Positions 1,867-63,858 of a stretch of DNA of 64,000 bases are shown here, in pieces. Below the pieces are notes generated by a model. That model was not told the origin of the DNA. It saw only the letters and a list, made by a program, of their open reading frames with translations, and ran no database searches. Location: the NCBI GenBank assembly GCA_963806875.1, contig CAWDYU010000002.1:145426-209425 (forward strand), read 5' to 3'. The stretch's first letter is position 1. Each line of letters starts with the position of its first letter. The position numbers were made by a program, and so were the translations under genes. The stretch comes from an uncultured Gemmatimonadales bacterium. Lineage in GTDB: Bacteria; Gemmatimonadota; Gemmatimonadetes; Gemmatimonadales; GWC2-71-9.

Positions 1867-1897
1867 TTGTCTCTGGCCGGACCCGGCACTATTCTTG
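1867..1897 (+). promoter_or_regulatory. Candidate promoter for rplU-rpmA (TTG-N20-TATTCTTG)
   Basis: TTG at 1867-1869, a 20-nt spacer, then the AT-rich octamer TATTCTTG at 1890-1897, 38 nt upstream of the rplU ATG. Part of a motif that recurs across the window. Confidence 0.35.
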
Positions 1898-1934
1898 GGG
1901 GCTGTAGTCCATGGACCACGACCAGAAGGGCACT

Positions 1935-2252
1935 ATGTACGCGATTTTCAAGGCACTCGGGAAGCAGTTCCGCGCCGTCAAGGGCGGTTCGATTCGGCTG
2001 CCCTACCAGGAAAAGGCCGTTGCCGGCGACAAGCTGACCTTCGACGAGGTCCTGCTGACGTCGAGCGGCGATGCCATCAAGACGGGCGCCCCGATGGTAT
2101 CGGGCGCGTCGGTGATGGCCGAGGTCGTGGGGCATGGCAAGGAAGACAAGATCTATGTGTTCAAGTTCAAGCGCCGGAAGGGCTACCGACGCAAGACCGG
2201 GCATCGGCAGAAGTACACCGAAGTCCGCATCACCGACGTTGTTCTCGGATAG
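1935..2252 (+). CDS. rplU: 50S ribosomal protein L21
   Basis: [12 protein letters not shown]... and [16 protein letters not shown] are typical L21. Lies immediately upstream of rpmA. Internal ATG at 1935 preferred over the ORF start at 1911. Confidence 0.93.
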
Positions 2253-2260
2253 GATGAATC

Positions 2261-2530
2261 ATGGCACATAAAAAGGGCGTCGGCTCCAGCCGCAACGGTC
2301 GCGATTCCAATCCGCAATACCTCGGCGTCAAGCACTTCGGTGGCGAGCGGGTCACGGCGGGCAGCATCCTGGTGAAGCAGCGCGGCACGAAGTTCCATCC
2401 GGGCCGCAATGTCTTCCGCGCCAAGGATGACTCGCTGCACACCTACATCGACGGCGTGGTGAAGTTCGAGCGCAAGGATCGCGATCGCCTCCGCATCTCG
2501 GTGTATCCGCAGGACGCAATCGCCAGCTGA
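2261..2530 (+). CDS. rpmA: 50S ribosomal protein L27
   Basis: [24 protein letters not shown]... and [15 protein letters not shown] are a canonical L27 N-terminus. Confidence 0.96.
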
Positions 2531-4932: not shown

Positions 4933-5047
4933 CCCCGATGGCGACGTAAGTCTCCGTGGTACCGGGTGCGGGCTGGACAAGCTCGCACCCCGCCTGCGCT
5001 TGCCGGAGCGGCTCGGGGCGCCCATTCTTCCGCGCGACAGCCTACCC

Positions 5048-6675: not shown

Positions 6676-6677
6676 TC

Positions 6678-8561: not shown

Positions 8562-8658
8562 GCCCGACGCGTGCGCGGTCGGCCCAGGGGGCCATTTCGG
8601 GCGCGTCCCTGCTATATTTCAGGGCTACCCACCGACCGGAGTTGTCGTGGTCCTGAGC

Positions 8659-9528
8659 ATGACCGGGTTCGGCGCGGCGGAGGGTGATATCGGCTCCCGC
8701 AGGGTGCGGGTCGAGATCCGGACGGTGAACCACCGGTACTTCAACCTCTCGATCCGCCTGCCCGGCGAGCTGGCGGCGCTCGAGGCCGAATGCCGCGAAG
8801 CGCTTCGCCGTGATTTCGAACGGGGGCATCTGTCGGTATCGGTGCGGTGGACCGAGGCTGCTGCCGCGGCGAACATCACCGACCAGGTCGATTGGGAACG
8901 CGCCGGTGAGATCGTGGCGATGCTTCGCGCTGTGCAGTCACGCTTCGCGCTCGCCGGGGATGTGACGGCAGAGATGGTGATGCGGCATCCCGATGCACTG
9001 CGTCGCACCGCCGACGAGGCGGTCGCCGAGGATGCCTGGGCGCAACTTGCACCAGTGGTTGCCGGGGCGGCATTGGAGTGTCGGACCGCTCGGCGTCGCG
9101 AAGGCGCCGTGCTGGCCGCCGACCTTGGCGCGAGGCTCGACGGGATTCACGCCGGCGCAGCGCTGGTCGCTGAGCAGATGGGCGGTCGCCTGGTGCGCGA
9201 GCGCGATCGGCTTCGCGCCAACGTCGAACAGCTGCTCGATGGCCGGTCAGTCGATGACCAGCGCCTGGCACACGAGCTCGCGATGATGGCCGACCGGGTC
9301 GATATCGCCGAGGAACTGGTGCGGCTGCACGCGCACCTGGCTGCGGCACGCGATGCCATCGGCCGGGGTGGTCCGGTCGGAAAATCGCTCGGTTTTCTCG
9401 CCCAGGAGATCGGCCGCGAGGTCAACACCATCGGTTCGAAGGCCAACGATGCAACGATCGCGCATCACGTGGTGGACATGAAGGGTGAGCTCGAGAAGTT
9501 TCGCGAGCAGCTGGAGAACGTCGAGTGA
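8659..9528 (+). CDS. yicC: YicC-family stress-induced protein
   Basis: MTGFGAAEG...EIRTVNHRYFNLSIRLP N-terminus and C-terminal EIGREVNTIGSKAND motif. Conserved yicC-gmk-rpoZ synteny. Confidence 0.85.
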   Translation: MTGFGAAEGDIGSRRVRVEIRTVNHRYFNLSIRLPGELAALEAECREALRRDFERGHLSVSVRWTEAAAAANITDQVDWERAGEIVAMLRAVQSRFALAGDVTAEMVMRHPDALRRTADEAVAEDAWAQLAPVVAGAALECRTARRREGAVLAADLGARLDGIHAGAALVAEQMGGRLVRERDRLRANVEQLLDGRSVDDQRLAHELAMMADRVDIAEELVRLHAHLAAARDAIGRGGPVGKSLGFLAQEIGREVNTIGSKANDATIAHHVVDMKGELEKFREQLENVE

Positions 9529-10160
9529 CACCGTTGGTCGTCGTGCTGTCGTCGCCATCGGGGGGCGGCAAGTCGTCGATCACCCAGCGACTCCTGACGG
9601 AGCGGGCCGACGCCGGATATTCGGTGTCTGCGACGACGCGCGCGGCGCGGGCAGGCGAGACCGACGGTGAGGCGTACCACTTCCTGTCGGCCGACGAGTT
9701 TGCGCGGCGGGTAGAGGCTGGTGACTTTCTCGAGCACGCGACGTACAACGGGCACTCGTACGGGTCGCTGGTCGAGGAGGTGCGCACGGTCACTCGCTCA
9801 GGTCGGCACGTGCTGCTCGACATCGAAGTGGTCGGGGCGCGCCTGGTGCGCGAGCGATTCCCCGATGCCGTGCTGATCTTCGTGGTGCCGCCGAGCGGGG
9901 CGGTGCTCGCCGAACGGCTGCGGGGGCGGGGCACCGAGGCCACCGATGTCGTCCGGGCGCGGCTGGAGCGGGCGCTGCACGAACTCGACGCGGCGCCGGG
10001 GTATGATTACGTCGTGGTGAATGACAACCTCGACGACGCGGTGCGGGCGGTGCATTCGATCATCGATGCCGAGTCGCGTCGCACAAGTCGGCAGCGGGAA
10101 GCAACGGTCCTGCTCGACCGGCTGCGGTCCGAGATCAGCGCGGAGCTGGCACGGGATTGA
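9525..10160 (+). CDS. gmk: Guanylate kinase
   Basis: P-loop SSPSGGGKSS, SVSATTRAAR, and YHFLSADEFARRVEAGDFLEHA. Confidence 0.92.
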   Translation: MTPLVVVLSSPSGGGKSSITQRLLTERADAGYSVSATTRAARAGETDGEAYHFLSADEFARRVEAGDFLEHATYNGHSYGSLVEEVRTVTRSGRHVLLDIEVVGARLVRERFPDAVLIFVVPPSGAVLAERLRGRGTEATDVVRARLERALHELDAAPGYDYVVVNDNLDDAVRAVHSIIDAESRRTSRQREATVLLDRLRSEISAELARD

Positions 10161-10191
10161 TTCAGGCAGTACTCACACGCAGGAGGGAAGC

Positions 10192-10419
10192 ATGGAAGTA
10201 TTCACGCCGCACGAAGTCGCCGAGCACACCGGGTCGAAGTACCGGGGCATTCTCGTTGCCGCGAAGTTCGCGCGGTACCTGAATGAGTTCCCGCGTGACG
10301 CAGTCGAGCGCTGGGAGCGCACCGAGGGCGTCAAGAAGCTCACCACGCTCGCGCTGACGAAGCTCACCAGTGGTGAGTTGACCTTCCGCGAGCTCCGCCG
10401 GCGCCGCACCGAGACCTGA
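10192..10419 (+). CDS. rpoZ: DNA-directed RNA polymerase omega subunit
   Basis: Small protein (75 aa) after gmk, with SKYRGILVAAKFARYLN. AGGAGGG RBS 6 nt upstream of the ATG at 10192. Confidence 0.8.
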   Translation: MEVFTPHEVAEHTGSKYRGILVAAKFARYLNEFPRDAVERWERTEGVKKLTTLALTKLTSGELTFRELRRRRTET

Positions 10420-10420
10420 G

Positions 10421-11614
10421 ATGTGGGAGGGCCGCCGCGTCGTCCTGGGCGTCACTGGCGGTGTCGCGGCGTACAAGGCCGTCCTCCTCGCCCGTGAGCT
10501 CTCGCTGCGCGGTGCGCTCGTCGACGTGATCATGACCCGTGGCGCCCGCGAGTTCGTGGGCGCTGCGACGTTCGAGGCAGTGACCCGGCGGCCGGTGCGC
10601 ACCTCGCTGTGGGAGCGTGACGCCGCGCTCGATCATGTGACGGTCGCCGATCGTGCCGATCTCGTACTCATCGCACCAGCCACCGCGCACGTGATCGCTC
10701 GGCTCGCTGCCGGGATCGCGGACGATCTCCTCACGGCGTTGGTGCTCGCGGCGCCGGGCCCCATCGTGATCGCGCCGGCAATGAACGACGAGATGCACGC
10801 CGATCCCGTCACGGCGTCCAACATCGCGATGCTCCGCGATCGTGGCTGGGAGATTGTGGGGCCAGCGGTCGGGCCACTCGCCGAGGGGCCGTCTGCACGC
10901 CCGGGTCGGATGGTCGAACCCAACGAGATCATCGCGCGCGCTGAGCGGGTCCTGTACGGGCCCGGTCCGATGCACGGCCTCAATGTGGTCATCACCGCCG
11001 GTCCAACGCGTGAGCCGATTGATCCCGTTCGGTTCGTTTCCAACAGGTCGAGCGGAAAGATGGGGTACCGACTCGCCGAGGCCGCGTGGCGCCGGGGAGC
11101 GGAGGTGACCCTGGTGTCCGGTCCGTCCAGCGAGGTGCCCCCAGCCGGCGTCAGGACGGTGTTTGTGGAGACCACCGCGGAGATGGCTGCGGCGGTGCTC
11201 GCGGAGATCGAAGACGCCGATGTGCTGGTGATGGCTGCGGCGCCATCGGATTTCCGCCCGTCGGTGGTGCGGGACGCCAAGGTGCCCCGGGCTGCCGGCG
11301 GCTTCACCCTGGCTTTCGATTCCACCGACGACATTCTCGAGATGACGCTGCCCCATCGGCACGCTGGCCTGACCACGGTCGGGTTCGCGCTGGAGACCGG
11401 TGCCGCCCTCGAGCGTGGACGGGCCAAGTTGTCGCGGAAGCAGCTCGACATGATCGTCATCAACGATGCGCTCGAGAAAGGTGCCGGTTTCGACGTCGAC
11501 ACCAACGCGGTCACGATCCTTGATTGCCTGGGCGGCGAGCAGCACGTGTCGATCCGGTCAAAAGCGGCAGTCGCGAATGCGATCCTCGATGCAGTCGAGG
11601 CCTACCGTGAATGA
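10421..11614 (+). CDS. coaBC: Bifunctional phosphopantothenoylcysteine decarboxylase / phosphopantothenate-cysteine ligase
   Basis: N-terminal flavoprotein motif VVLGVTGGVAAYKAVLLAREL and PAMNDEMH. C-terminal ligase domain (ITAGPTREPIDPVRFVSNRSSGKMG). Confidence 0.92.
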   Translation: MWEGRRVVLGVTGGVAAYKAVLLARELSLRGALVDVIMTRGAREFVGAATFEAVTRRPVRTSLWERDAALDHVTVADRADLVLIAPATAHVIARLAAGIADDLLTALVLAAPGPIVIAPAMNDEMHADPVTASNIAMLRDRGWEIVGPAVGPLAEGPSARPGRMVEPNEIIARAERVLYGPGPMHGLNVVITAGPTREPIDPVRFVSNRSSGKMGYRLAEAAWRRGAEVTLVSGPSSEVPPAGVRTVFVETTAEMAAAVLAEIEDADVLVMAAAPSDFRPSVVRDAKVPRAAGGFTLAFDSTDDILEMTLPHRHAGLTTVGFALETGAALERGRAKLSRKQLDMIVINDALEKGAGFDVDTNAVTILDCLGGEQHVSIRSKAAVANAILDAVEAYRE

Positions 11615-12497
11615 CGCCACTCGGCGATGGATCGAATTGCAGCGCGACCTCGGCGGCGATGAGGTGATCTTCGAGCGTCCATTGCCGGCGCATGCGCAGG
11701 TGACGCTCGGCAAGGTGCCGGAGAGGCCGAAGTCGCCGTCCCCCGCGCGATCGGCGCGGCCGGCGGCCCGAGCCCCGGATTCGCCGGCGCCACCAGTCGG
11801 TGATGCCCCGCAGCCACTTCCCGCCGTATGGCAGTTCAAGCCGACGGGAGATCCGGCGGCAGCGTGGCGCGAGGGCGCTCCCGAGATCCCGGGACCGGGG
11901 TTGTCGGTGACCGTGCCCCCGCAGCGTGCCGGCAACCCGGCCTGGGCAACGTTGGACGAAGTGGCGGCGATCGTGTCGGGGTGCGTCAAATGCCCCCTCG
12001 CCGCGGGACGTACGCTCACCGTCCCGGGCGAGGGGAATCCCGCTGCCGGCCTGTTCTGCGTGGGAGAGGGGCCCGGCGAGGCAGAGGACAAGTCCGGGCG
12101 TCCATTCGTGGGCCGAGCGGGCGGTATGCTCGACAAGATTCTCGCCGCCATCGAGGCTCCGCGCCCAACGGTCTACATTGGGAACGTGGTGAAGTGCCGC
12201 CCGCCTGGAAACCGGGCACCGTTGCCAGACGAGCGGGAGGCGTGCATGCCGTATCTTCATCGGCAGATCGCGCTGGTGCGCCCGAAGGTGTTGCTTGCCC
12301 TCGGGACGTCCGCCGCCGAGGCGCTCCTCGGCGTCCGGAAACCGCTCGGAGAGCTCCGGCTCAAGGTCCACCGTTACAATGGCATTCCGCTCATCGTGAC
12401 GTATCACCCCGCGGCATTGCTGCGAAACCCCAACTGGAAGCGGCCCGCCTGGGATGACGTCCGTATCGCTCGCCAACTCCTCGACGCAATCGACTGA
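11607..12497 (+). CDS. Uracil-DNA glycosylase, family 4
   Basis: Motif A GEGPGEAEDKSGRPFVGRAG and motif B TYHPAALLRN. The N-terminal ~110 aa is Pro/Ala-rich. GTG 11607 chosen as start and uncertain. Confidence 0.8.
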   Translation: MNDATRRWIELQRDLGGDEVIFERPLPAHAQVTLGKVPERPKSPSPARSARPAARAPDSPAPPVGDAPQPLPAVWQFKPTGDPAAAWREGAPEIPGPGLSVTVPPQRAGNPAWATLDEVAAIVSGCVKCPLAAGRTLTVPGEGNPAAGLFCVGEGPGEAEDKSGRPFVGRAGGMLDKILAAIEAPRPTVYIGNVVKCRPPGNRAPLPDEREACMPYLHRQIALVRPKVLLALGTSAAEALLGVRKPLGELRLKVHRYNGIPLIVTYHPAALLRNPNWKRPAWDDVRIARQLLDAID

Positions 12498-13851
12498 TCC
12501 GTTCCAGGGCCGCAGTGTGCCCTGGAGCCAGGAAGCCGAGCAGGCCGTGCTTGGCGCCATGGTCATCGACAACGAGGCCGCGCTTCGTGGTGCCGAACTC
12601 CTCGACGACGGGATGTTCTACCGCGAGGGTCACCGGCGCCTGTTCCGGGCCATCCGTGCGCTGGTCGAGCAGCGCATGATGATCGACTACGTCACCCTCC
12701 GTGACGAGCTGCAGCGGCGTGGCGATCTCGAGCTCTCGGGCGGGATCGACTATCTCGACGAACTCGTCAACGCCGTCCCCACCGCGGCAAACCTCGAGTA
12801 CCACGCCCGGATCCTCAAGGAAAAGGCGATCTCGCGCAGGCTGATCGAGGCCGCGACGCAGATCATCACCGAGACCTACGAGGGTGCGGCCAAGGCCACG
12901 GAACTGCTCGACAGCGCCGAAGGCAAGATCTTCCGGATCGCCCAGCAGCGGGGCGAGGAGAAGTTCATCCGGATCAAGGAACTCCTGTACCCGGCAATGG
13001 ATCGCATTGATGCGCTCCAGAAGGGGAAAGGAACGATCACCGGTGTACCCAGCGGCTTCACCAAGCTGGATGACATGACGACCGGGTTCCAGCCTTCGGA
13101 GTTGATCATCGTGGCGGCGCGACCGTCGATGGGCAAGACGGCGTTCTGCCTCAACCTGGCGACGCACGCGGCCCACGAGGGTCATGGCGTGGCCGTCTTC
13201 TCGCTCGAGATGTCGAAGGACTCGCTGGTGCAGCGCATGCTCTGCGCCGAGGCACGGGTGGATTCGCAGGCAGTGCGACGCGGCACGCTCAAGCCGCCCG
13301 ACTGGACCAGCCTCGCGCGCGCTGCGGGCATCCTGCAGACCTGTCCTGTGTGGATCGACGACACGCCGGCGCTCACGCTGCTCGAGATGCGCTCAAAGGC
13401 TCGCCGACTCAAGGCCGAGAACGACGTGCGGCTGGTGATCGTCGACTACCTGCAGTTGATGCGGAGCCCGGAGTATTCCGAGAACCGCGTGCAGGAGATC
13501 TCGGATATCTCGCGATCACTCAAGCAACTCGCCCGCGAGCTCGAGCTTCCCGTGATCGCATTGTCGCAGCTCTCTCGCGCATCCGAGCAGCGCGGCGGCG
13601 ATCGGTTGCCGCTGCTTTCCGACCTGCGTGATTCCGGTGCGATCGAGCAGGACGCCGACCTGGTGATGTTCATCCATCGTCCCGAGATGTACCGGGACCT
13701 TCGCGAGAAGGCCGAGCAGGCCGGCGAGACGCTCGAGGGCCGCACCGACGTGATCCTGGCCAAGCACCGCAACGGCCCGACCGGCCAGATCGATCTCTAC
13801 TTCCACAAGCAGTTCACCCGGTTCGACAACCTCAGCGATCGCGAGAACTGA
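12454..13851 (+). CDS. dnaB: Replicative DNA helicase DnaB
   Basis: PWSQEAEQAVLGAM N-terminus, Walker A ARPSMGKTAF, and IVDYLQLM, SQLSR, DSGAIEQDAD motifs. Confidence 0.95.
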   Translation: MTSVSLANSSTQSTDPFQGRSVPWSQEAEQAVLGAMVIDNEAALRGAELLDDGMFYREGHRRLFRAIRALVEQRMMIDYVTLRDELQRRGDLELSGGIDYLDELVNAVPTAANLEYHARILKEKAISRRLIEAATQIITETYEGAAKATELLDSAEGKIFRIAQQRGEEKFIRIKELLYPAMDRIDALQKGKGTITGVPSGFTKLDDMTTGFQPSELIIVAARPSMGKTAFCLNLATHAAHEGHGVAVFSLEMSKDSLVQRMLCAEARVDSQAVRRGTLKPPDWTSLARAAGILQTCPVWIDDTPALTLLEMRSKARRLKAENDVRLVIVDYLQLMRSPEYSENRVQEISDISRSLKQLARELELPVIALSQLSRASEQRGGDRLPLLSDLRDSGAIEQDADLVMFIHRPEMYRDLREKAEQAGETLEGRTDVILAKHRNGPTGQIDLYFHKQFTRFDNLSDREN

Positions 13852-13852
13852 G

Positions 13853-15206
13853 GTGGCACGGGTGCGTTCGGTGTGGCGCTGCGCCGAGTGTGGTCACCAG
13901 CATGCCAAGTGGGCGGGGCAGTGCGAGGGGTGCAGTGCGTGGAACAGCGTCGCCGAGGAGCTTGCAGGCGACCGGGTGAGCAAGGGCGGCGCCTCGGTCG
14001 CCACGGCGTCGGCGCCGATCCGACTCCGCGAAGTCGAGGGCGCCCGGCTCGAGCGGTGGAGCAGCGGGCTGCCCGAGCTCGATTTCGTCCTTGGCGGAGG
14101 GCTCGTGCCGGGGTCGATGACCCTCATCGGCGGCGAACCGGGGATCGGCAAGTCCACGTTGTTGCTGCAAGCCGCGGCGCGACTCGAGGCGGGCGGCCGG
14201 ACGGTGCTGTACGCCAGCGGTGAGGAATCTCCCGAGCAGCTCCGGTTGCGCGCCGATCGGATCGGCGAGGAGAGCGGCGGCGTGCAGGTCATCGGGGAGA
14301 CGCGTCTCGAGGCGATCCTGCGGGCCACCCACGCGGTTGGTGCGTCGGTGCTGATCCTCGACTCGATCCAGACCGTCTACACCGATGCCCTCGAGAGCGC
14401 GCCAGGCAACGTGGGCCAGGTGCGCGAGTGCGCCGGCCTGCTTGATGCGTTACGCGAAGGACAGCGGTGTCGCCGTGATCGTGGTGGGCCACGTGACGAA
14501 AGGCGGTGCCATCGCCGGTCCCAAGACGCTCGAGCACATCGTCGACACCGTGCTCTACTTCGAGGGCGAGACCACCCTCGACTATCGGCTCCTGCGCGCC
14601 ACCAAGAATCGGTTCGGTTCGGTCGACGAGCTCGGCGTGTTCACGATGACCGAACGGGGGCTCATCCCGGTAGCGAATCCGTCCGCGGTGTTCCTCGCGG
14701 CACGTGCGGCGGGAACTCCTGGCAGCGCCGTCACCGCGCTGATGGAGGGCACCAGGCCGGTGCTGGTGGAGGTGCAGGCGCTCGCGGCTCCATCGGGGTA
14801 TGGCACGCCGCAGCGCGTGGCGACCGGGATCGATCCGAAGCGTCTGGCCGTGTTGCTCGCCGTTCTCGAGCGGCGGGGCGGCACATCGTTCGCCGGACTC
14901 GATGTCTTCGTGCAGGTGACCGCGGGTGTACGGCTCAACGAGCCTGGCGCCGACCTCGCCGTGGCGGCGGCGCTCCTGTCCTCGGCCCACAACCGTGCCA
15001 CCCCTGCCGATGCGATGTACCTCGGGGAGCTGGGGCTCGGCGGCGAGATCCGGCCGATCGGTGGCGTCGAGCGGCGCCTCTCGGAGGCCGCTCGACTGGG
15101 GTTCCAGCAGGCATTCGGCTCGGCCCGCTCCAAGGTGACGGTCGCGGGGATTCGACATCGCGGCCTCGATCACGTCGACCAGCTGGTGCGCACCCTTGCC
15201 GCGTGA
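13853..15206 (+). CDS. radA: DNA repair protein RadA/Sms. The frame is broken by an apparent extra G at 14444.
   Basis: Zn finger CAECGHQHAKWAGQCEGC, Walker A GGEPGIGKST, KNRFG motif, and a Lon-like C-terminal domain. ...VRECAGLL (frame of 13853) continues as MRYAKDSGVAVIVVGHVTKGG in the frame of ORF 14385..15206. Confidence 0.88.
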
Positions 15207-15882
15207 TTGCGGGGTCGTGATCGTGGCCGCCGGACGCGGCACCCGGGTCGGCGGGACGGTTCCCAAGCAGTTCGTCGAGATCGCCGGTGCCCCGGTGCTG
15301 CTCCACGCGATCCGCCCCTTCGCGTCGCATCCCGACGTGCTGCAGGTGGTCGTCGTACTCGCCGCCGACGACGCGGCAACGCCACCGGCGTGGCTTGCGT
15401 CGCACCTGGGCGACCGCCTCAGCGTCGTGTCCGGCGGTGCCGAGCGGAGTGCATCAGTCGCGGCCGGCCTCGCGGCACTCTGTCCGGAGTGTGCCATCGT
15501 CCTGGTACACGACGGCGCCCGTCCGTTTCCACCGCGCAAGGTGATCGATGACGGGATCGCGATCGCCCGCAGCGGTCATGGTGCGGTGCCGGCCATCCCG
15601 GTTGGCGATACCATCAAGCGCGCCGACGAATACGGACAGATCCTCACCACGGTGTCCCGCGAAGGGCTCTGGCAGGCGCAAACGCCCCAGGTCTTCCCTC
15701 GTGAGGTGCTCGTGCGGGCACACGCCGCAGCGCAGGCCGAAGGCCTGTGCAGCACCGACGACGCCGGCCTGGTCGAGCGGATCGGCGAGCGGGTGCAGCT
15801 GATCCCGGGGTCGCCCCGCAACCTCAAGATCACGACGCCCGATGATGTCGCCATGGCGGGGTGGCTGGCGGCACAGCCATGA
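15196..15882 (+). CDS. ispD: 2-C-methyl-D-erythritol 4-phosphate cytidylyltransferase
   Basis: VIVAAGRGTRVGGTVPKQF, VLVHDGARPF, and QTPQVF motifs. Start is TTG 15196 or GTG 15217. Confidence 0.9.
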   Translation: MPRDCGVVIVAAGRGTRVGGTVPKQFVEIAGAPVLLHAIRPFASHPDVLQVVVVLAADDAATPPAWLASHLGDRLSVVSGGAERSASVAAGLAALCPECAIVLVHDGARPFPPRKVIDDGIAIARSGHGAVPAIPVGDTIKRADEYGQILTTVSREGLWQAQTPQVFPREVLVRAHAAAQAEGLCSTDDAGLVERIGERVQLIPGSPRNLKITTPDDVAMAGWLAAQP

Positions 15883-16530
15883 TCGTCCCGTTTCACGATG
15901 ACGCCGACGTCGATGCGATCGCGGCGCAGGTTGCCGACCATCTCCGGAGCGGGAAGCTGCTGGCGTATCCCACCGAGACTGTCTACGGGCTCGGGTCCGA
16001 TGCGTCCGATGCCGGACTCGACGCGTTGGCCCGGCTCAAGCGTCGCGCACCAACCAAGCCGTTCCTGCTGCTCGTCTCGGGCCTCGACATGCTCGCCGCC
16101 TCGGGACTCGCCATGACCCCCGCTGCGCGCGTGATGGCGCGCGAGTTCTGGCCGGGCCCGCTCACGCTCGTGTTGCGGGGCGGTGAAGGGCGCCTTCCGG
16201 ATCGGCTGCGTGGTCCCGAAGGTGGTATCGCGGTGCGCTGGACATCGCACGCATTGCTCGCGCGGCTCGATCGCGGCTTTCGGCGAACCGATCACGTCGA
16301 CATCTGCCAATATCCCCGGTGCGGCGCCGTCGGCGGGCGCGATCGGCGTGCCGGGACTGTTTCCCGACGCCGTGAGGTCGGGTGAGCTGCTGGTGCTCGA
16401 CGGCGGCGTCCTCGGAAACGTGCCGCCGTCGACGCTGGTCGACTGCACCGCACCGGTCGCGCGGCTGGTTCGCGAGGGCGCGATCCCGCGTACCGAACTG
16501 CGTGCGCGCGCCGGATCGCTGGCGCCGTGA
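15879..16530 (+). CDS. tsaC: L-threonylcarbamoyladenylate synthase (TsaC/YrdC family). The frame is broken by an apparent extra G at 16269.
   Basis: YPTETVYGLG and KPFLLLV motifs. ...TSHALLARL (frame of 15861) continues as IAAFGEPITSTSANIPG in the frame of ORF 16183..16530. Confidence 0.82.
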
Positions 16531-16532
16531 CG

Positions 16533-17006
16533 ATGCGCATCCTTGTCGTGTGCTCCGGCAACACCTGCAGGTCGCCGCTGGCGGCAGCGATGCTCGCGAA
16601 TCGGATCGCCCGCCACCCCGATCTGGCCGGCACGGAGGTGGCATCGGCCGGCACATCTGCGTGGCCGGGCGCCCCGGCGTCCGATGGGTCACTGCTGGTT
16701 GCGCTCGAACGCGGGATCGACCTTTCGGCTCACCGGTCACGACTCGTCACCGCGGAGTTGGTCCAGGTCGCCGACATGATCCTCGTCATGGGCGAGTCGC
16801 ATCGCCGTCGCGTCGCCGACCTGGGAGGTGCCAATCGGGTGCACCTGTTGTCGGATTTCGACCCGGACAGCGATGGCAGCGACGTGCCTGACCCATTCGG
16901 CGGGAGCGTGGAGGCGTACCGTGCCACCGCGGAGGCGTTCGACGTGATGCTCGGTGGAGTGATCGAGCAATTGAGGGCCGAATCTCCCGACCGGCGTGCA
17001 CCGTGA
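16533..17006 (+). CDS. Low-molecular-weight protein tyrosine/arginine phosphatase
   Basis: Active site VCSGNTCRSP (C-x5-R-S) and downstream DVPDPFG. Sits after tsaC, as in the Bacillus ywlC-ywlE arrangement. Confidence 0.88.
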   Translation: MRILVVCSGNTCRSPLAAAMLANRIARHPDLAGTEVASAGTSAWPGAPASDGSLLVALERGIDLSAHRSRLVTAELVQVADMILVMGESHRRRVADLGGANRVHLLSDFDPDSDGSDVPDPFGGSVEAYRATAEAFDVMLGGVIEQLRAESPDRRAP

Positions 17007-17809
17007 AAATCTCGGCCAGTACCCGAACGTTTGCGCTGCTGGGCGATCCGGTGGGGCACTCGCTGTCGCCAAGGATGCAGAATGCCGGATTTCACGCGGC
17101 CGGCATCGACGCGGTGTACGTCGCGCTGCGGTGCGAGGCGGATGCCGTCGTACCGACCATGCGGTTGCTCGCTGGCGCCAACGGCGGCGGTAACGTCACC
17201 ATTCCGCACAAGCGCGTCGCCGCGAGCTGCGCGCCGGCTGTTGCCATCGGGATCGAAACCGGGGCGGCCAATACCTTTGCGGGCACTGCAGATGGATTGC
17301 TCGTCGCGAACACCGACATCGAGGCCATCGCGCACGCTGTCGATTTGCTGGGTGGCCCCGACGGTGCCTGGCTCATCCATGGTACCGGTGGCAGTGCCCG
17401 CAGCGCCGTGGCCGCGGCCGTGTCGCGCGGGTGCGCCGTGGCGGTGTCGTCGCGGGACGACGCCCGAGCCGATGACTTCGCCCGCTGGTGCCGGTCGGTC
17501 GGTGCGGAGGTGGTGCCCGCGTCACAAGCGGTGACTGCCATCAACGCGACTCCGCTCGGCCTCTCCGATGACGACGCGCTGCCGTCGGACCCGACGGGGC
17601 TTCCCGCGGTGCGCACTGCGCTGGACCTGACCTACCGCCACCGCGGGACGACAGCGTGGTGCCGCGCCTGGGACGCGCAGGGTGTGGCGTCGGTCGATGG
17701 TCGCGAGCCACTGCTGTGGCAGGGGGTGGCGGCCTGGCAGCACTGGTTTCCCGGTGTCGCCGTGCCGGTCGATGTGATGCGCGCGGCGCTAACACATGCC
17801 GTGGACTGA
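17003..17809 (+). CDS. aroE: Shikimate dehydrogenase
   Basis: LLGDPVGHSLSPRMQNAGF and NVTIPHK motifs. GTG start overlaps the preceding stop. Confidence 0.88.
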   Translation: MKISASTRTFALLGDPVGHSLSPRMQNAGFHAAGIDAVYVALRCEADAVVPTMRLLAGANGGGNVTIPHKRVAASCAPAVAIGIETGAANTFAGTADGLLVANTDIEAIAHAVDLLGGPDGAWLIHGTGGSARSAVAAAVSRGCAVAVSSRDDARADDFARWCRSVGAEVVPASQAVTAINATPLGLSDDDALPSDPTGLPAVRTALDLTYRHRGTTAWCRAWDAQGVASVDGREPLLWQGVAAWQHWFPGVAVPVDVMRAALTHAVD

Positions 17810-18560
17810 CGTCGTTCGCGCCGCCGAGAGGTGGCTGCTGGTGCCGGAGTGCATGACGTGCGGTGCGGTGGTGGGCGAGGCGGGTGAACCGCTCGTGTGC
17901 GCGGTTTGCCGGATGCGGTGGCGTGCGCTGCCGTCACCGGTGTGCGTCACCTGTGGTGAGCCTGCAGACCTCGGTCTGTCTTGTCGACTGTGCGTGGGCT
18001 GGCCCGACGGATTCAGCGGCGTCCGCAGTGCAGTGCGGCTGGATGCGCCGGTGCGCGAACTGATCCATGCGTTCAAGTACGACGGCTGGTGGCGCCTGGC
18101 GGAAGCATTTGCCACCCGCATGGAGCCGTTTGTCGCGTCGAGCCTGGACGGTGCCGACCTCATCCCGATTCCGCTCTCGCCGGGCCGCCAGATGAAGCGG
18201 GGCTATAATCAGGCAGCATGCATCGCGGATGCGCTCGGACGATTGACGTCCATGCCGGTCGCCGGCGCGCGGCTATCACGGCGGCGTGATACCGGCACGC
18301 AGACACGGCTCACGCCGGCGATGCGACTCGTCAACCTCGCCGGCGCGTTTTCCGCCACCCCCAGTGGTCGGCGCGCGGTGCTGGTGGACGATGTGTTCAC
18401 CACCGGGGCCACGTTATGTTCGGCGGCCACGGCGCTTCTCGAAGCGGGCGCAGAAGCCGTGACTGCCCTGACCTTTGCCCGGGCCGCCCCGCCGCTCACC
18501 GACGCGGCGTTCCGGATCGACAACATCACCCTACTTCGTTCAAGTGAGGCTTCAGCATGA
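17796..18560 (+). CDS. comF: ComF-family protein (amidophosphoribosyltransferase-like)
   Basis: N-terminal double Cys pairs (CMTCG..CAVC, CVTCG..CRLC), RGYNQA, and PRTase motif [13 protein letters not shown]. Confidence 0.82.
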
Positions 18561-19567
18561 GCATTCGTGTCGGCATCAATGGTTTCGGACGCATCGGCAG
18601 GAACGTGGTTCGCGCAGCCAAGGCGGCCGGGATCACCGACATCGACTTCGTCGCGGTCAACGACCTCACCGACACGAAGACCCTCGCGCACCTGCTCAAG
18701 TACGATTCGGTGCATGGGCGCTTCCCGTTCGAAGTGTCCGCGGTCGATGGTGGACTCGACGTCGGCGGCGACCTGATGAAGGTGTTTTCCGAGCGTGACC
18801 CATCGAAGCTGCCGTGGGGTGACGTGGGGGTGGACATCGTGCTCGAGAGCACCGGCATCTTCACCGATCGTGACAAGGCAGCAATGCACCTGAGCGCGGG
18901 CGCGAAGAAGGTCGTGATCTCGGCGCCGGCCAAGGGCGAGGACAAGACGTTCGTGTACGGGGTGAACCACCTCGACTACGACCCGGCCAAGCATCACGTC
19001 ATCTCGAACGCATCGTGCACCACCAACTGCCTGGTGCCGGTGGTGAAGGTCATCCGTGAGCAGTTCGGGTTCGTGCGCGGCTTCATGACGACCGTCCACA
19101 GCTATACCAACGACCAGAGCATTCTCGACCTGCCGCACAAGGACCTGCGCCGCGCGCGCGCCGCGGCCTTGTCGATCATCCCGACCAGCACCGGTGCGGC
19201 CAAGGCCACCTCGCTGGTGATCCCCGAGGTCAAGGGAAAGATCGACGGCATCGCGCTCCGGGTCCCGACTGCCGACGTCTCGCTCGTCGACCTCACCTGC
19301 ACGGTGGAGCGGGGCACGACGGTCGACGAGGTCAACGCCGCATTCCGCGCGGCGGCCGACGGTCCGCTCAAGGGCGTGCTGTTCGTGAATGACGAGCCGC
19401 TGGTCTCCGTTGACTACATCGGCAATCAGGCATCGAGCACCGTGGATTCGCTGTCGACATCGGTGGTCGATGGCACGCTGGTTCACGTGTCGTCGTGGTA
19501 CGACAACGAGATGGGCTACTCGGCGCGGTGCGTCGACATGATCCGGCACATCGGCGCCCAGCTGTGA
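18557..19567 (+). CDS. gap: Glyceraldehyde-3-phosphate dehydrogenase (type I)
   Basis: [11 protein letters not shown] and active site [10 protein letters not shown]; WYDNEMGYS. Confidence 0.96.
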
Positions 19568-20760
19568 GCAAGCGGACGCTCGCCCAGCTCGACGCCGCGC
19601 ATCTCGACGGGCAGCGGGTGGTGGTGCGCGTCGACCTCAATGTCCCGATCACCGACGGTGTGATCGGGGATGACACGCGGATCCGCGCATCGCTTCCCAC
19701 CATCCGGTTCCTGCGGGAGCACGGTGCGCGGGTGGTGCTGCTATCGCACCTCGGCCGGCCGAAGGGAAAGTCCGACCCGGCGTTCTCCCTCAAGCCCGTG
19801 GCCCGCGAGCTGGAAAAGCAGCTGGGGATCCCGGTGACCTTCCTCGCGGATCCTGCAAGCGAAGCGGCGGCGGCCGAGGTTCGCCACCTGCCGCGTGGCG
19901 GGGTGGCCCTCGCCGAGAACACGCGGTTCTACCCGGGCGAAGAGAAGAACGATGCCGACCTGGGGGCCAAGTTCGCCGCGCTCGGGGACATCTACGTGAA
20001 TGACGCGTTCGGTTCGGCGCACCGCGCCCACGCGAGCACCGAGGCGATTGCGCACAAGCTCAAGCCCGCGGTGTCCGGCTTCCTGATGGAGCGGGAACTG
20101 CGCTTCCTCGGTGATGCCATCGAGCAGCCCGAGCGGCCGTTCGTGGCGATTCTCGGTGGCGCCAAGATCAGCGGCAAGATCGACCTCATCGAGGCGCTGC
20201 TGCCAAAGGTCGATCACATCCTCATCGGCGGCGCGATGGCGTGCACGTTCTTTCGTGCGATGGGACATGAGACCGGAAAGTCACTGGTGGAAGAGGACCG
20301 CGTCGAGATGGCGAAGCGGTTGATCGAGACCGCCGGCGACAAGCTGGTGTTGCCTGCGGGTGCGGTGATCGCCGAGCGTCTCGAGGAAGGCGTGGACACG
20401 CGGGAGGTGCCTCGTGATGCGATCCCCGCCGGCTGGGCGATGTTCGATATCGATCGCGAGAGCGTGCGTCACTTTGCGGCGCTCATCGAGAAGGCCCGCA
20501 CGGTCATCTGGAACGGGCCGATGGGGGTGTTCGAGATGCCGCCATTCGACGCCGGGACGCTGGGTGTCGCGCATGCCATGGCGGCTGCGACCGACAAGGG
20601 TGCGACCACCATCATCGGCGGGGGCGATTCCGCGGCGGCCGTGACGGCAGCTGGACTCGACGATCGTGTCACGCACGTCTCGACCGGTGGTGGCGCGTCG
20701 CTGGAGTTTCTCGAGGGCAAGCCGCTTCCGGGCGTCGCCGCGCTGGACGACGCAACGTGA
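19564..20760 (+). CDS. pgk: Phosphoglycerate kinase
   Basis: [27 protein letters not shown], and [16 protein letters not shown] 19564 overlaps the gap stop. Confidence 0.95.
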
Positions 20761-21500
20761 GCCGCCCCCTTCTCTTCGCCGCCAACTGGAAGATGCACGT
20801 GACGCCCGGCGAGGCGCGTACCTACATGGACCGCTTTCTCGCCGTCGACGCGCCTCGCCCTGATCGCAGCTTGACTTTCTTCCCGCCGGCCGTGTCGATC
20901 GACGCCGTTGCGCGTGCGCTGGCTGGCCACGATCACGCCACCGTCGGGGCCCAGGACGTGTACTGGGAGCCGAAAGGAGCCTTCACGGGTGCCACGTCGG
21001 TGTCCCTTGCTCGCGGCGCCGGCGCGGCCGCGGTGCTGGTCGGTCACAGCGAGCGGCGGCATGTCTTCGGTGATACCGACGCAGAAACCAGGCTGAAACT
21101 TGATGCCGTGGTTGCGGGCGGACTCCAGGTGATGTTGTGCGTCGGCGAGACGCTGGCCGATCGCGAGGCAGGACGTACCGATGCAACGACGGCGCGGCAG
21201 CTGACGAGCGCCCTGGAAGGGGTCGATCCCGCGATCGACCTGGTGATCGCCTATGAGCCCGTCTGGGCCATCGGTACGGGACGCAACGCCACCCCCGACG
21301 ACGCCGCCCGGGCACACCGTGGCATCCGGAATGTTCTCCAGGACGTGGGATTTCCGGCCGCGACCCGCGTGCTCTACGGCGGATCGGTCAACGCCGGCAA
21401 CGTCGCCGACCTGCTCGCGCAGCGAGAGCTGGATGGGGTGCTGGTCGGGGGCGCCTCGCTCGACCCCGATGGATGGGCTGCCATCTGTACTCAGGGCTGA
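20757..21500 (+). CDS. tpiA: Triosephosphate isomerase
   Basis: AANWKMH, VGHSERR, and IAYEPVWAIGTG motifs. Confidence 0.95.
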   Translation: MSRPLLFAANWKMHVTPGEARTYMDRFLAVDAPRPDRSLTFFPPAVSIDAVARALAGHDHATVGAQDVYWEPKGAFTGATSVSLARGAGAAAVLVGHSERRHVFGDTDAETRLKLDAVVAGGLQVMLCVGETLADREAGRTDATTARQLTSALEGVDPAIDLVIAYEPVWAIGTGRNATPDDAARAHRGIRNVLQDVGFPAATRVLYGGSVNAGNVADLLAQRELDGVLVGGASLDPDGWAAICTQG

Positions 21501-21540
21501 CCCGATTATCTTTGATGGCTAGACTCAACCTGGGAATACC

Positions 21541-27041: not shown

Positions 27042-27080
27042 GTATGTCTTCGCGACCCCGCCCTCACCACGACGGATGCC

Positions 27081-45105: not shown

Positions 45106-45124
45106 GTGGGTGGGTCTGGGTGCA

Positions 45125-45233
45125 ACTGGGTGACAGGTAACAGGTAACAGTCACGTGGGCGAAGGCGGCCGACATCCCATCGATGTCGGCCGCCTTGCTT
45201 GGCGCCGCTGTCACCTGTCACCTGTCACCCAGT
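45125..45233. repeat. Nested inverted-repeat element: 26-nt arms made of three tandem heptads, flanking a 14-bp-stem hairpin
   Basis: Left arm 45125-45150 (GTGACAG GTAACAG GTAACAG). Right arm 45208-45233 (CTGTCAC x3). The arms are 24/26 complementary. Inner hairpin at 45162-45196: aaggcggccgacat-cccatcg-atgtcggccgcctt. Confidence 0.8.
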
Positions 45234-45268
45234 TCGGGTGTGACTGGCCGGAGGAACAACGGGTGTCC

Positions 45269-45829: not shown

Positions 45830-45972
45830 GCAGCCTTCCGGGAGGAGGTGGAGCGGTGGGGTGATCGGGGCGCAATATACCGGCAGCCCCCCACCGGCGC
45901 ACCCGGTCGATCCGGGCCTCAAGTTGGCGCAGGTACGATGGTTATCCGGCTTGCCGGGAGTGGGCTGGCGAG

Positions 45973-46003
45973 TTGAAATCACCCTCGTCCGGCGGTAGGT
46001 TTG
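45973..46003 (+). promoter_or_regulatory. Candidate nuo operon promoter (TTG-N20-TAGGTTTG)
   Basis: TTG at 45973-45975, a 20-nt spacer, then an exact TAnnTTTG octamer at 45996-46003, 31 nt upstream of the nuoA GTG. Confidence 0.45.
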
Positions 46004-46010
46004 CCGAGGT

Positions 46011-46026
46011 TGTGAAATATTTCACG
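46011..46026. promoter_or_regulatory. Candidate operator: CRP/FNR-like palindrome TGTGAAATATTTCACG
   Basis: Perfect 14-bp palindrome GTGAAATATTTCAC at 46012-46025. It matches TGTGA-N6-TCACA at 9 of 10 positions. It lies between the promoter octamer and the GAGGA RBS of nuoA. Confidence 0.45.
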
Positions 46027-46033
46027 AGGATGG

Positions 46034-61377: not shown

Positions 61378-61381
61378 CGCG

Positions 61382-63742
61382 GTGAACCCGCGCACCCGAC
61401 GGATCATCGTCGGGGCAATCCTCGTGATAGCAGTGCTGGTGATCGGGCGCTGGACCGTGGCGGCGGTCGCGGAGCGCTGGTGGGCAATGTCGATTTCACC
61501 CACCGCTGCTTCATTCGTCACACGATGGCAGATCCTCGGCCTCGCCCTCGACGCCGCAGCGATCGTCATTGCCAGTGGCTGGTTCGCGGCGCAGGCGCTG
61601 CTGGTGGCCCGCTCGATCGCAGCGGTCGAAGTGGAGCGCGACCTCGGCAACCTGAGGGTGCGCGAGGCGGTGCCGGGGCGATTGCTCGCGCTCGCCGCCG
61701 TCGCGACGGGTGTCCTGCTCGGCGTGCTCACGGGAGCAGGCGCACGCGCGTGGCGAGTGCCATTGGCGCTCGCGTGGGAGGGTGTGACGTACGGGGTCCG
61801 TGATCCCGTGCTGGGTGTCGATGTCGGCACGTACGTCGCGGAGCTCCCGCTGTGGGTCGTCGCGCACCGATTTGCGTTCACGCTGGTCACCCTTGGCCTG
61901 GCGATCACGGCGGTGCTGTATTTCGCCGTGGGGGCGATTCGCCGCGTCGACGGGGCGCTCGACGTCCACGCCGATGCGCGTCGCCACCTCGGTGCACTGC
62001 TCGCCCTCCTCGCGCTCGTGATTGGTGCGGGATACCTCATTGCGCCGTATGGACTGGCTGATGGCGGCAACACGCTGAGCCAGGTCGCGATCGCGACCCG
62101 GGTGACTGCAATGCAGGCGATGGCTGGCGCGTCGCTCGCCGTCGCGGCAATGTGCCTCACGTGGGTCGTGCGAGGGCGTAATTCATTGGTCGCGTCGGGC
62201 TGGATCGTCCTCGGATTTGGCGCACTCATCGAGCGTGTGGTGATCCCCGCACTCGCAACGGAAGCCCCAGCGGCACCGGCACGGCACGATGCGTTGAGGG
62301 CGCTGGACGCTGTCGCCTGGGGACTCGCCGTCGACTCCAGTTCACCCGCGCGCACTGACACCGTTCCGGCAATCGCGGGGGTGTGGGATGAGTCAGCGCT
62401 CGCGCTCGCTGCGGAGCGGCAAGACGGATTGCTGCTCGCCGCGACGCCTCGCACGCCCGACGCTGCGAATCCCGCCACGTGGCTGGCGGCGGTGTCCCGC
62501 GGCGAGGCCGGTGCGCTGCAGGTCCGGTTCATCGCCGAACCGGGCTCGGGCGCATCGGTCCCGTCGAGGCAGTGGCAGGGACTCGGGTCCGCACGAATTC
62601 GGCCCGACGCACCAGCGTGGCGACCAGCGAACGCTGTTCCGTCGGGTGGATTTGCTTCGCGCCTCGTCCTCGCGTGGGCACGTCAGGCCGCGGGCATGCT
62701 CACGCCGCAGCAGGAGGGCGGCGTCGACTGGCACCTCGACCCCGTCGAGCGGGCGGCGGCGCTCGTGCCGATGGCGACGTGGGGATCGGCCGACATCGTC
62801 CCGATCGATGGACGAATCACCTGGATGGTGCCCGGATTCGTCACGATGTCGAAGTTCCCACTGACCCGTCGAACCACATGGGATGGTGAGTCGGTGGCGG
62901 GCGTGGTGCCCGCTTTCCTCGCCCTGATCGACCTGGAGTCCGGAAACACCCGAATCTTCAGTGACCCTGCCGCCGACTCGTTGGGCCTGGCGTGGTCCCG
63001 TTACATCGGACCGTTGGTCGAGCCCGCGGCCGCAATCCCGGCGGCGGCGAGAGCCTCGTTGCTCTACCCGCGCCAATGGTTCGAGGCCCAGCTGTCGGTG
63101 CTGTCACTCGAGCGCTGGGGAGCCGGCGTGAGACCGGGGCGACGGAGTCCCGACGACTCACCCGAGGCGCCAGTCGTGGTATGGGACGGCTCGCGGCCAA
63201 CACGTCAGGCTGTGTTCGAGGACCCTGCGCGTCGCACCATTTCCGCAATCGTCGACGCCCAACGAGTCGGAGGGATGCCACGCCTCCGGCTCACCCGTCC
63301 GGGACCGCAGGCGGCCCCGCCGAACTCGCGCGAACTCGAGCGCATCTGGTCGCGGTTCATCCCCGTTCAGCAGCTACGGGATTCGACCCGGGCGGTTGGC
63401 GACACGGTGCACGCCGGCGCAGTGCGCTGGCACGCCGGACCGGCTGGATTCGTGGCGTGGCAACCGGTGGTCGCAGTGCCCGCCGACGGCGACCCCGGTC
63501 TCCTCTGGATCGGCACGGCCCTTGGTACCCAATTCGGCGGCGGGCGATCGACCGACGAGGCGTGGATCACGGTCCTGACTGGTCCGGGTCGGCGAGGAGA
63601 CAACCCGGCCGACGCCGTTTCGCTCGATGCCGCGCGGAGATGGATGCATCGCGCCGACTCCGCCCTCGCACGACGCGATCTCGTCGGCTTCGGCCGCGCC
63701 CTGGATGCGCTCCGCGACGCGCTCGGCGATCCGCGTCCTTAG
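61382..63742 (+). CDS. Large polytopic membrane protein, UPF0182-like
   Basis: About seven N-terminal transmembrane helices, then a large soluble C-terminal region with LLYPRQWFEAQLSV (resembles the UPF0182 YPxDLFxxQ motif). Family assignment is tentative. Start is GTG 61382 or 61364. Confidence 0.45.
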   Translation: MNPRTRRIIVGAILVIAVLVIGRWTVAAVAERWWAMSISPTAASFVTRWQILGLALDAAAIVIASGWFAAQALLVARSIAAVEVERDLGNLRVREAVPGRLLALAAVATGVLLGVLTGAGARAWRVPLALAWEGVTYGVRDPVLGVDVGTYVAELPLWVVAHRFAFTLVTLGLAITAVLYFAVGAIRRVDGALDVHADARRHLGALLALLALVIGAGYLIAPYGLADGGNTLSQVAIATRVTAMQAMAGASLAVAAMCLTWVVRGRNSLVASGWIVLGFGALIERVVIPALATEAPAAPARHDALRALDAVAWGLAVDSSSPARTDTVPAIAGVWDESALALAAERQDGLLLAATPRTPDAANPATWLAAVSRGEAGALQVRFIAEPGSGASVPSRQWQGLGSARIRPDAPAWRPANAVPSGGFASRLVLAWARQAAGMLTPQQEGGVDWHLDPVERAAALVPMATWGSADIVPIDGRITWMVPGFVTMSKFPLTRRTTWDGESVAGVVPAFLALIDLESGNTRIFSDPAADSLGLAWSRYIGPLVEPAAAIPAAARASLLYPRQWFEAQLSVLSLERWGAGVRPGRRSPDDSPEAPVVVWDGSRPTRQAVFEDPARRTISAIVDAQRVGGMPRLRLTRPGPQAAPPNSRELERIWSRFIPVQQLRDSTRAVGDTVHAGAVRWHAGPAGFVAWQPVVAVPADGDPGLLWIGTALGTQFGGGRSTDEAWITVLTGPGRRGDNPADAVSLDAARRWMHRADSALARRDLVGFGRALDALRDALGDPRP

Positions 63743-63757
63743 TGGCGTCAGGCCACT
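63741..63757 (+). terminator. Weak terminator-like hairpin after the UPF0182-like gene
   Basis: agtggc-gtcag-gccact forms a 6-bp stem overlapping the TAG stop. A T-run (ctacttttc) lies only 8 nt downstream. Confidence 0.25.
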
Positions 63758-63858
63758 CGCTGCGCTACTTTTCAGGGCTGTACCGTGTTCCTGCCGGACC
63801 GTCGCACGCCTGTCGGCATGCCCGGTCCGGGCCCGTTCCTGCAACTCGCCGAGGCGTG

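Follow-up and report, generated by a model that had tools for sequence, protein, structure and literature searches.

A TTGaCa-N17/18-TAnnTT consensus marks predicted housekeeping promoters in Gemmatimonadales

In Bacteroidetes, SigABfr promoters are described as carrying a -7 element TAnnTTTG and a -33 element TTTG (Bayley 2000 and Vingadassalom 2005, as cited in PMC7366714 and PMC9723704). The TAnnTTTG box of Flavobacterium spans positions -12 to -5, in register with a -10 hexamer plus two bases (PMC9723704), and differential RNA sequencing (dRNA-seq) in Chlorobaculum tepidum yielded an RpoD motif, TTG-N17-23-TA[ATC][ATC][AT]T (bioRxiv 10.1101/172254). For Gemmatimonadota we found no promoter consensus in open-access papers and preprints (subscription journals lay outside this coverage), which agrees with a preliminary description of the DNA studied here. 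That DNA, a stretch of 64 kb with 66.9% G+C that we call the window, had been surmised to be of a Gemmatimonadota-like lineage and comes from a Gemmatimonadales genome: in a scan of a genome collection, the closest relative of its malate dehydrogenase (mdh) product belonged to a Gemmatimonadales metagenome-assembled genome (MAG; 87% identity). The preliminary description had read AT-rich octamers upstream of the window's operons as Bacteroidetes-style promoters of the form TTG-N20-TAnnTTTG. Of that reading, the TAnnTT hexamer with its T at -8 stands, whereas TTTG at -33 and G at octamer position 8 do not, and the T at position 7 is weak. The consensus that emerges from sequence comparison is TTG[A/C]C[A/G], a spacer of 17 or 18 bp and TAnnTT, which we write TTGaCa-N17/18-TAnnTT.

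The underlying observation is sound. All eight octamers, upstream of rplU, yicC, secG, an HU gene, mdh, a DUF4332 gene, nuoA and sucC, read as claimed; each of the four TTG triplets is separated from its octamer by exactly 20 nt (at 1867, 27574 and 45973, and at 39974 on the minus strand); and Pfam agrees with the downstream genes (L21, YicC, SecG, HU, malate dehydrogenase, DUF4332, NuoA and SucC). Distances of about 27-85 nt between octamer and start codon had been given; rplU probably starts at ATG 1935 (MYAIF) rather than at 1911, with its octamer ~38 nt upstream. It was also correctly anticipated that few exact TAnnTTTG words would occur by chance: the two strands of the window hold 4, against ~5 expected from composition, and the word is thus not enriched over the window as a whole. 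Three of the four nevertheless fall within gene-oriented intergenic DNA; the fourth (17272) lies inside aroE, has no -35 and is 25 or more nt from the nearest TTG, and we take it as a chance occurrence. In 5000 dinucleotide-preserving shuffles of the 24 oriented intergenic regions (2243 nt), the mean count of TAnnTTTG was 0.18 against 3 observed (P=0.0008), bearing out the suspicion that the placement of exact octamers is non-random. TAnnTTT[GC] (observed 6, shuffle mean 0.35) and TTG-N20/21-TAnnnT (observed 4, shuffle mean 0.24) did not reach their observed counts in any of the 5000 shuffles. Judged from sequence, the window octamers appear to be genuine promoter -10 elements.

Other parts of the Bacteroidetes-style reading did not survive closer inspection. 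TTG-N20-TA, which had been taken as a Bacteroidetes hallmark, is identical to TTGnnn-N17-TAnnnT, the canonical sigma-70 spacing, and therefore cannot distinguish a Bacteroidetes-type promoter from a canonical one. The statement that the window contains no good TTGACA-N17-TATAAT promoter is contradicted by HU, with a perfect TTGACA (23046-23051) 18 bp before its -10, and by a generic sigma-70 scan, which scores the DUF4332 site (TTGCCA-N17-TATATT) at 10/12.

To place these sites in a wider context we assembled the window and 101 related loci, 899 kb altogether, as a Gemmatimonadota set. The mdh-product scan of the genome collection supplied 21 of these loci, together with controls from Acidobacteriota, Chloroflexota and Desulfobacterota and a few Bacteroidota, Ignavibacteria, Calditrichia and Marinimicrobia loci; a YicC scan of metagenomes supplied 80 more (52-63% identity, 62-73% G+C), assigned to Gemmatimonadota by similarity alone, as their records carry no taxonomy. 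Genes were called by a self-trained codon model, and the upstream region was defined as the non-coding stretch 5' of each gene. Motif discovery, proposed earlier as a check on a complete genome, was run on this set together with enrichment counts; TAnnTT is enriched upstream of genes, and the terminal TG is not part of the consensus. An unbiased screen of gapped 4-mers, sense versus antisense, was dominated by codon-like words (CT..CG, CTG..G) because some of the upstream regions contain unrecognised coding sequence; TA...TT was still among the highest ratios (45:10). For this reason our conclusions draw on tables built around explicit hypotheses, on co-directional regions and on footprints at orthologous promoters. 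Expectation-maximization (EM) on an enlarged set without anchor genes, with a zero-order background, returned low-information pyrimidine/GC motifs that probably stem from short tandem repeats, and these were discarded.

The enrichment tables, EM motif discovery and footprints at orthologous promoters converge on one and the same signal. Across 187 upstream regions, TAnnTT was the only one of the 16 TAnnXY patterns to exceed expectation (63 sense, 35 antisense, observed/expected 2.3), and across 369 regions it occurred 130 times in sense and 54 times in antisense orientation. TATAAT did not occur at all in the 25 kb of upstream sequence from the 187 Gemmatimonadota regions, and TA.AAT was found twice on each strand, as against 72 sense and 36 antisense in Acidobacteriota. 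TTG preceded TAnnTT by 20 nt in 17 cases and by 21 nt in 16, with 0-2 cases at each of the other spacings between 15 and 25. In co-directional regions the combination of TTG and TAnnTT was seen 20 times in sense and never in antisense orientation (11 versus 0 after removal of the anchor genes).

De novo EM with random seeds under a zero-or-one-occurrence-per-sequence (ZOOPS) model gave GnTAnnTT[T/C]C as its best motif; a palindrome close to nuoA inflated this result in part. A two-block EM seeded with TTG and TAnnnT only, which collected ~99 sites in 310 regions, resolved a -35 of T.80 T.86 G.83 [A.43/C.45] C.70 [A.34/G.30], a spacer of 17 bp (62%) or 18 bp (38%), with 0 for 15 and 16 bp, and a -10 of T.74 A.97 n n T.66 (C.24, A.07) T.91. 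Information was highest for A at -11 (2.28 bit) and T at -7 (1.92 bit), followed by T at -8 (0.94 bit); the values at -11 and -7 are partly circular, both bases having been seeded at 0.7, and the unseeded EM gave A.89 and T.91. The last two positions of the octamer contribute little. Position 7 (-6) is T.40/C.36, worth 0.30 bit, and position 8 (-5) is C.44/G.32, worth 0.09 bit over a background G of.30; a conditional set had G 18 and C 18 at position 8, and TA..TTTC outnumbers TA..TTTG by 28 to 15. Because G at position 8 is at background and T at position 7 is weak, the three octamers listed as exact are no better consensus matches than near sites ending in TTTC. The -33 TTTG fares no better: T precedes TTG in only 4% of sites, TTTG is absent from the -35 region of every window site, and perfect TTGACA occurs at HU and, in several loci, at nuoA.

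Comparison of orthologous promoters gave the same answer gene by gene. Upstream of yicC, TAnnTT lies ~36 nt before the start in ~70 of the 80 metagenomic loci, in diverged flanks and with hexamers that include TAAATT, TACATT, TAACTT, TAGATT and TATCTT. Most of the 21 Gemmatimonadota loci from the mdh scan have TAnnTT 45-70 nt before the mdh ATG, and those of Longimicrobiales and Gemmatimonas place TTGACA, TTGACC or TTGAGC at 17 bp. HU orthologs with a recognisable promoter carry TTGACA-N17/18 followed by TAGACT, TAAGTT, TATGTT, TAGAAT or TAGTAT. At nuoA, five of seven orthologs have TTGACA, TTGACC, TTGAAT or TTGCAG 17 or 18 bp before TAnnTT, the exceptions being L016, where TTGACA is further from TAGCTT, and L023, which has none (L numbers denote comparison loci). 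The secG ortholog in L001 reads TTGAGC-N17-TATCTTtgggGGCTAGACT. As TAnnTT is kept at orthologous promoters while nn varies and flanks have diverged, the signal is phylum-wide and under selection.

What sets these promoters apart is T rather than A at -8, a trait common to Gemmatimonadota and to Bacteroidota and allies. We counted the base at -8 in TTGnnn-N17/18-TAnnnT sites with one pipeline for all groups. Gemmatimonadota had T 25, C 13, A 3 and G 0, and the Bacteroidota, Ignavibacteria, Calditrichia and Marinimicrobia loci T 12 and A 3, against T 12 and A 16 in Acidobacteriota and T 3 and A 7 in Chloroflexota (Fisher P for Gemmatimonadota 5e-4 versus Acidobacteriota and 9e-4 versus Chloroflexota). 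EM matrices agreed, with nAnAAT in Acidobacteriota, TATnAT with an extended -10 G in Chloroflexota and TAnnTTT in Bacteroidota and allies. G+C content does not explain the choice of T over A, because G+C pressure cannot discriminate between the two.

A position weight matrix (PWM) trained on non-window loci only, with which both window strands were scanned, recovered the window sites (scores in bits). Nine of its 12 top matches fall in oriented intergenic DNA, which makes up 1.7% of the sequence searched, and six of the eight -10 sites first listed are among these nine, secG being counted through an overlapping hexamer. The highest score, 19.9 bits, belongs to the DUF4332 promoter (39946-39974, minus strand; -35 TTGCCA 39974-39969, 17-bp spacer, -10 TATATT 39951-39946), in which TG precedes the -10 hexamer. 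It is followed by the promoter of the nuoA-N operon (45973-46001; TTGAAA, 17-bp spacer, TAGGTT; 16.7 bits), that of HU (23046-23075; TTGACA, 18-bp spacer, TACATA 23070-23075; 15.5 bits), a match within coding sequence (14.5 bits) and a site absent from the earlier list, the predicted promoter of tRNA-Leu(CAA) (5000-5028; TTGCCG 5000-5005, 17-bp spacer, CATTCT 5023-5028; 13.9 bits), which ends 20 nt before the tRNA begins at 5048. Next come the mdh-sdh promoter (27574-27602; TTGGGC, 17-bp spacer, TAACTT; 13.6 bits), the rplU-rpmA promoter (1867-1903; TTGTCT 1867-1872, 17-bp spacer, TATTCT 1890-1895; 12.8 bits), with L21 and L27 downstream, and the secG region, where the matrix chose an overlapping alternative -10, TAGACT, at 21520-21525 (12.7 bits). 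A candidate promoter of a SpoU-type methylase gene (27020-27048; TTGCCC-N17-TATGTC; 11.2 bits) is weaker than other sites, and a candidate -10 of the divergent dcd (TATATT, 45874-45879, minus strand; 9.4 bits) is weak and has a poor -35. The genes served are housekeeping genes: ribosomal proteins, a tRNA, secG, HU, nuo and mdh-sdh.

Four window promoters, those of rplU, yicC, secG and sucC, have little or no -35 and instead share the layout TAnnTT[T][C/G]-N2-GGCT. GGCT stands four bases after the hexamer at rplU (1890-1903, with GGCT at 1900-1903), at the yicC operon (8613-8626; TATATT 8613-8618, GGCT 8623-8626), at secG, whose internal promoter after tpiA spans 21507-21525 (TATCTT 21507-21512, GGCT 21517-21520), and at sucC (63766-63779; TACTTT 63766-63771, GGCT 63776-63779; 9.9 bits), as well as in L001 (245-258) and upstream of yicC in L082-L151. 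The yicC and sucC sites both lack a TTG-type -35 and have the same layout, TAnnTTTC-N2-GGCT; for want of this -35 the PWM misses yicC, and its status depends on the footprint at its orthologs, in which TAnnTT-N4-GGCT is kept in most of the 80 metagenomic loci. TAnn[TC]T-N4-GGCT occurs four times in the window, and 63 of its 67 matches in 1.8 Mb of strands are intergenic. At sites without a -35, T at octamer position 7 is found 10 times in sense and 0 times in antisense orientation, and this subset is the most Bacteroidetes-like part of the material; numbers are small, but downstream contacts may make up for the missing -35 in this subset. GGCT could be an initiator or discriminator element, or merely the sequence around +1.

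At many yicC promoters another word stands in place of TTGACA. Upstream of yicC in L083-L145 (for example L093 4875-4906), CTACC was found at a single distance from TAnnTT, exactly 19 nt ahead of it, in 45 cases. At this offset CTACCA falls in register with a -35 box, 18 bp from the hexamer. L088 and L118 contain a second gene family with CTACCG where relatives have TTGCCG. The yicC promoter of the window lacks CTACCA, which represents either a non-consensus -35 that has been conserved or a binding site for another factor.

Given the motif, spacing, orientation, placement, phylum-wide conservation and contrast with other phyla observed here, we assign a probability of about 0.8 to the sites being promoters of the housekeeping (group 1, RpoD/SigA-type) sigma factor, with canonical geometry and -35 box and a -10 that prefers T (or C) at -8. 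We infer from sequence both the sigma factor that would read the motif and the position at which transcription would start. In E. coli and Thermus, A-11 and T-7 flip into pockets of sigma region 2. In Gemmatimonadota, sigma region 4 would bind the -35 box, region 2 would capture A-11 and T-7 from the melted non-template strand, and transcription would start ~6-8 nt past the hexamer. Several points weigh against this assignment. A regular-expression search of six-frame translations found no sigma-70 family gene in the window or in 160 loci; the -10 of the window's HU site, TACATA, has no T at -7; and CTACCA in place of TTGACA at yicC promoters could mean that a different factor acts there. Our gene calls are home-made, and some upstream regions hold coding sequence that adds noise. 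Many of the sampled promoters are orthologs (yicC, mdh, HU, nuoA, secG), so that perhaps 20-40 promoters, rather than ~100, effectively count as independent, and the control set of Bacteroidota and allies is small (39 regions from five lineages). The -10 and +1 assignments, finally, are predictions from sequence logic.

The alternatives differ in how much of this evidence they can absorb. Least able to do so is the idea that intergenic DNA, being more AT-rich, contains such octamers by chance: although exact TAnnTTTG is no commoner in the whole window than composition predicts, P was 0.0008 or lower in local dinucleotide shuffles, the spacing of TTG is tightly confined, the strand bias is 20 versus 0, and sites are kept at orthologous positions across the phylum, and we regard the idea as refuted. 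True Bacteroidetes-type promoters, with -7 TAnnTTTG and -33 TTTG read by a SigABfr-like sigma factor without canonical -35/-10 recognition, would explain why TA at -12/-11 and TT at -8/-7 equal the first six positions of TAnnTTTG, why the window has three exact octamers and six TAnnTTT[GC] against 0.35 in shuffles, and why T at position 7 is so strand-biased in -35-less promoters (10 to 0). They would not explain why G at position 8 is at background (0.09 bit), why TTTC endings exceed TTTG endings (28 versus 15), why position 7 holds only 0.30 bit, or why the -35 is TTG[A/C]C[A/G], preceded by T in 4% of sites and commonly a perfect TTGACA; in Bacteroidetes the -33 element is itself weak or undetectable (PMC7366714). 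We consider this explanation very improbable, and think no better of ordinary TTGACA-N17-TATAAT promoters whose non-essential positions have been degraded by 67% G+C with no lineage-specific preference. Such degradation fits the canonical geometry, -35 box, A-11 and T-7, and the acceptance of the DUF4332 site by a generic scan, and high-GC Actinobacteria likewise use a relaxed TAnnnT. It does not fit the 0.94 bit carried by T at -8, the T:A ratio there of 25:3 against 12:16 in Acidobacteriota (58% GC) and 3:7 in Chloroflexota (65% GC), or the scarcity of TA.AAT (2/2 against 72/36 in Acidobacteriota).

Somewhat more plausible, though in our judgement still unlikely, is a division into two classes, one of SigA promoters with TTGACA-N17/18-TAnnTT and one of -35-less promoters with TAnnTT[T][C/G]-N2-GGCT that depend on another sigma factor or on a CTACCA-bound activator. 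The GGCT sites without TTG at -35, the recurrence of TAnn[TC]T-N4-GGCT (four times in the window, with 63 of 67 matches intergenic) and the single 19-nt spacing of CTACC in 45 cases all speak for it. However, both classes have the same -10 hexamer; the L001 secG and window rplU promoters join a TTG-type -35 with GGCT; apart from the yicC and secG families and window rplU and sucC, only 1 case of GGCT four bases after the hexamer turned up; and in one other gene family CTACCG stands where relatives have TTGCCG, which points to a weak variant of the -35 rather than to a different factor. We return to a single housekeeping sigma factor as the preferred reading, and offer an extension of it that is speculative and, in our view, open to considerable doubt. 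Gemmatimonadota SigA may have its own -10 specificity, between the canonical and Bacteroidetes forms, with a pyrimidine, mostly T, at -8; -35-less promoters may also need T at -6 and the initiator-like GGCT; T-8 may descend from a common ancestor with the phyla of the Fibrobacteres-Chlorobi-Bacteroidetes (FCB) superphylum, with the -6T/-5G contact gained, and recognition of TTGACA lost, later in Bacteroidota; and the CTACCA of yicC may mark a further factor.

The distance from the hexamer to the start codon suggests a further property of these genes. In 24 cases (~14 of them other than yicC orthologs), 5-9 nt separate the end of TAnnTT from an ATG or GTG start downstream, compared with 1 case for 0-4 nt and ~1.2 per nt for 10-19 nt. 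A peak at 5-9 nt is the pattern expected of a -10 box before leaderless mRNAs, and suggests that such mRNAs may be fairly common in Gemmatimonadota; examples are L130 4513-4529, L144 1452-1480, the yicC starts of L146-L160 and ~14 other genes. Two other sources gave little: an Rfam scan for 5' leaders, as start-site anchors, found tRNA alone, and tRNA genes as a separate promoter sample were too few, with 2 tRNAs in 101 loci.

A palindrome that resembles a Rex operator, TTGTGAAATATTTCACGA (46010-46027), lies downstream of the nuoA -10 and upstream of the start codon, and overlaps the predicted +1. It is one mismatch from the Rex operator consensus, TTGTGAAnnnnTTCACAA; the pattern with a 4-nt spacer was matched once, with 0.02 expected by chance. 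Half-sites of the GTGAAAnnTTTCAC type also occur upstream of nuoA in L004, L008, L012, L013, L018 and L023. These sequences suggest redox (NADH/NAD+) repression of complex I through a Rex-like box, which we regard as an associated regulator site, separate from the promoter motif.

Several other features of the window deserve mention. Positions 8647-23049 hold a very long, almost gapless string of co-directional genes in the order yicC, gmk, a small open reading frame (ORF), coaBC, UDG, dnaB, radA, ispD, tsaC, a low-molecular-weight phosphatase gene, aroE, a comF-like gene, gap, pgk, tpiA, secG and carA, with promoter-like sites at the yicC and secG junctions only; the N-terminal 590 nt of radA were scored as non-coding by the codon model. 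An M28 peptidase is split between overlapping ORFs in different frames (25242-26546 and 26446-26967, together 25242-26967) that match positions 1-69 and 70-191 of Pfam PF04389, a frameshift that reflects either a pseudogene or an assembly error. Where a PilT-like ATPase gene and dcd converge (45124-45234), the intergenic DNA contains 27-nt inverted arms of tandem heptamers (GGTGACA/GGTAACA) that flank a perfect 15-bp GC-rich hairpin (45162-45196) without a T tract. Similar short tandem 6-7-mers are present in intergenic DNA of L014, L083, L100, L146 and L149 and may constitute a repeat family of the repetitive extragenic palindromic (REP) type or one associated with terminators.

Gemmatimonadota are among the most abundant soil phyla, with few isolates and almost no genetics. 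A usable consensus would improve the annotation of operons and start codons in thousands of MAGs, guide the design of expression tools and, as with the Rex-like box at nuoA, help to position regulator sites with respect to promoters. Our data also suggest that the odd Bacteroidetes promoter was assembled stepwise, with T at -8 older than the phylum.

Set against known systems, the Gemmatimonadota motif has the architecture of canonical sigma-70/SigA promoters, with which it shares a TTGACA-like -35, a 17-18 bp spacer, A-11 (.97), T-7 (.91) and a frequent T-12, in sites that are oriented with, and lie 20-130 nt before, housekeeping genes and a tRNA; it departs from them at -8 (T.66/C.24, with A.07), in a weak T/C at -6 and in never reading TATAAT. 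With Bacteroidetes SigABfr promoters it has in common TA..TT at -12 to -7 and perhaps, judging from small numbers, a preference for T at -6 in -35-less promoters, but it shows no G preference at -5, its -35 is TTGACA-like rather than TTTG or absent, and, unlike in Bacteroidetes, a Shine-Dalgarno-like GGAGG precedes genes. The actinobacterial TAnnnT with a weak -35 is likewise found in a high-GC lineage in which T-12, A-11 and T-7 alone are strongly kept, whereas in Gemmatimonadota -8 is informative (0.94 bit) and many sites have a clear -35. Gemmatimonadota group with the FCB superphylum, and the FCB-related Chlorobaculum tepidum combines a -35 TTG with a -10 of TAnn[A/T]T that lacks the terminal TG of Bacteroidetes. 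Its motif, derived from mapped starts, tolerates both A and T at -8 and a broader range of spacers, whereas the Gemmatimonadota motif, deduced from sequence comparison, has mostly T/C at -8 and strictly 17-18 bp; of the motifs described so far, that of Chlorobaculum is probably nearest in overall form. The Gemmatimonadota motif is thus a lineage-specific variant of the sigma-70 promoter and not a new kind of promoter.

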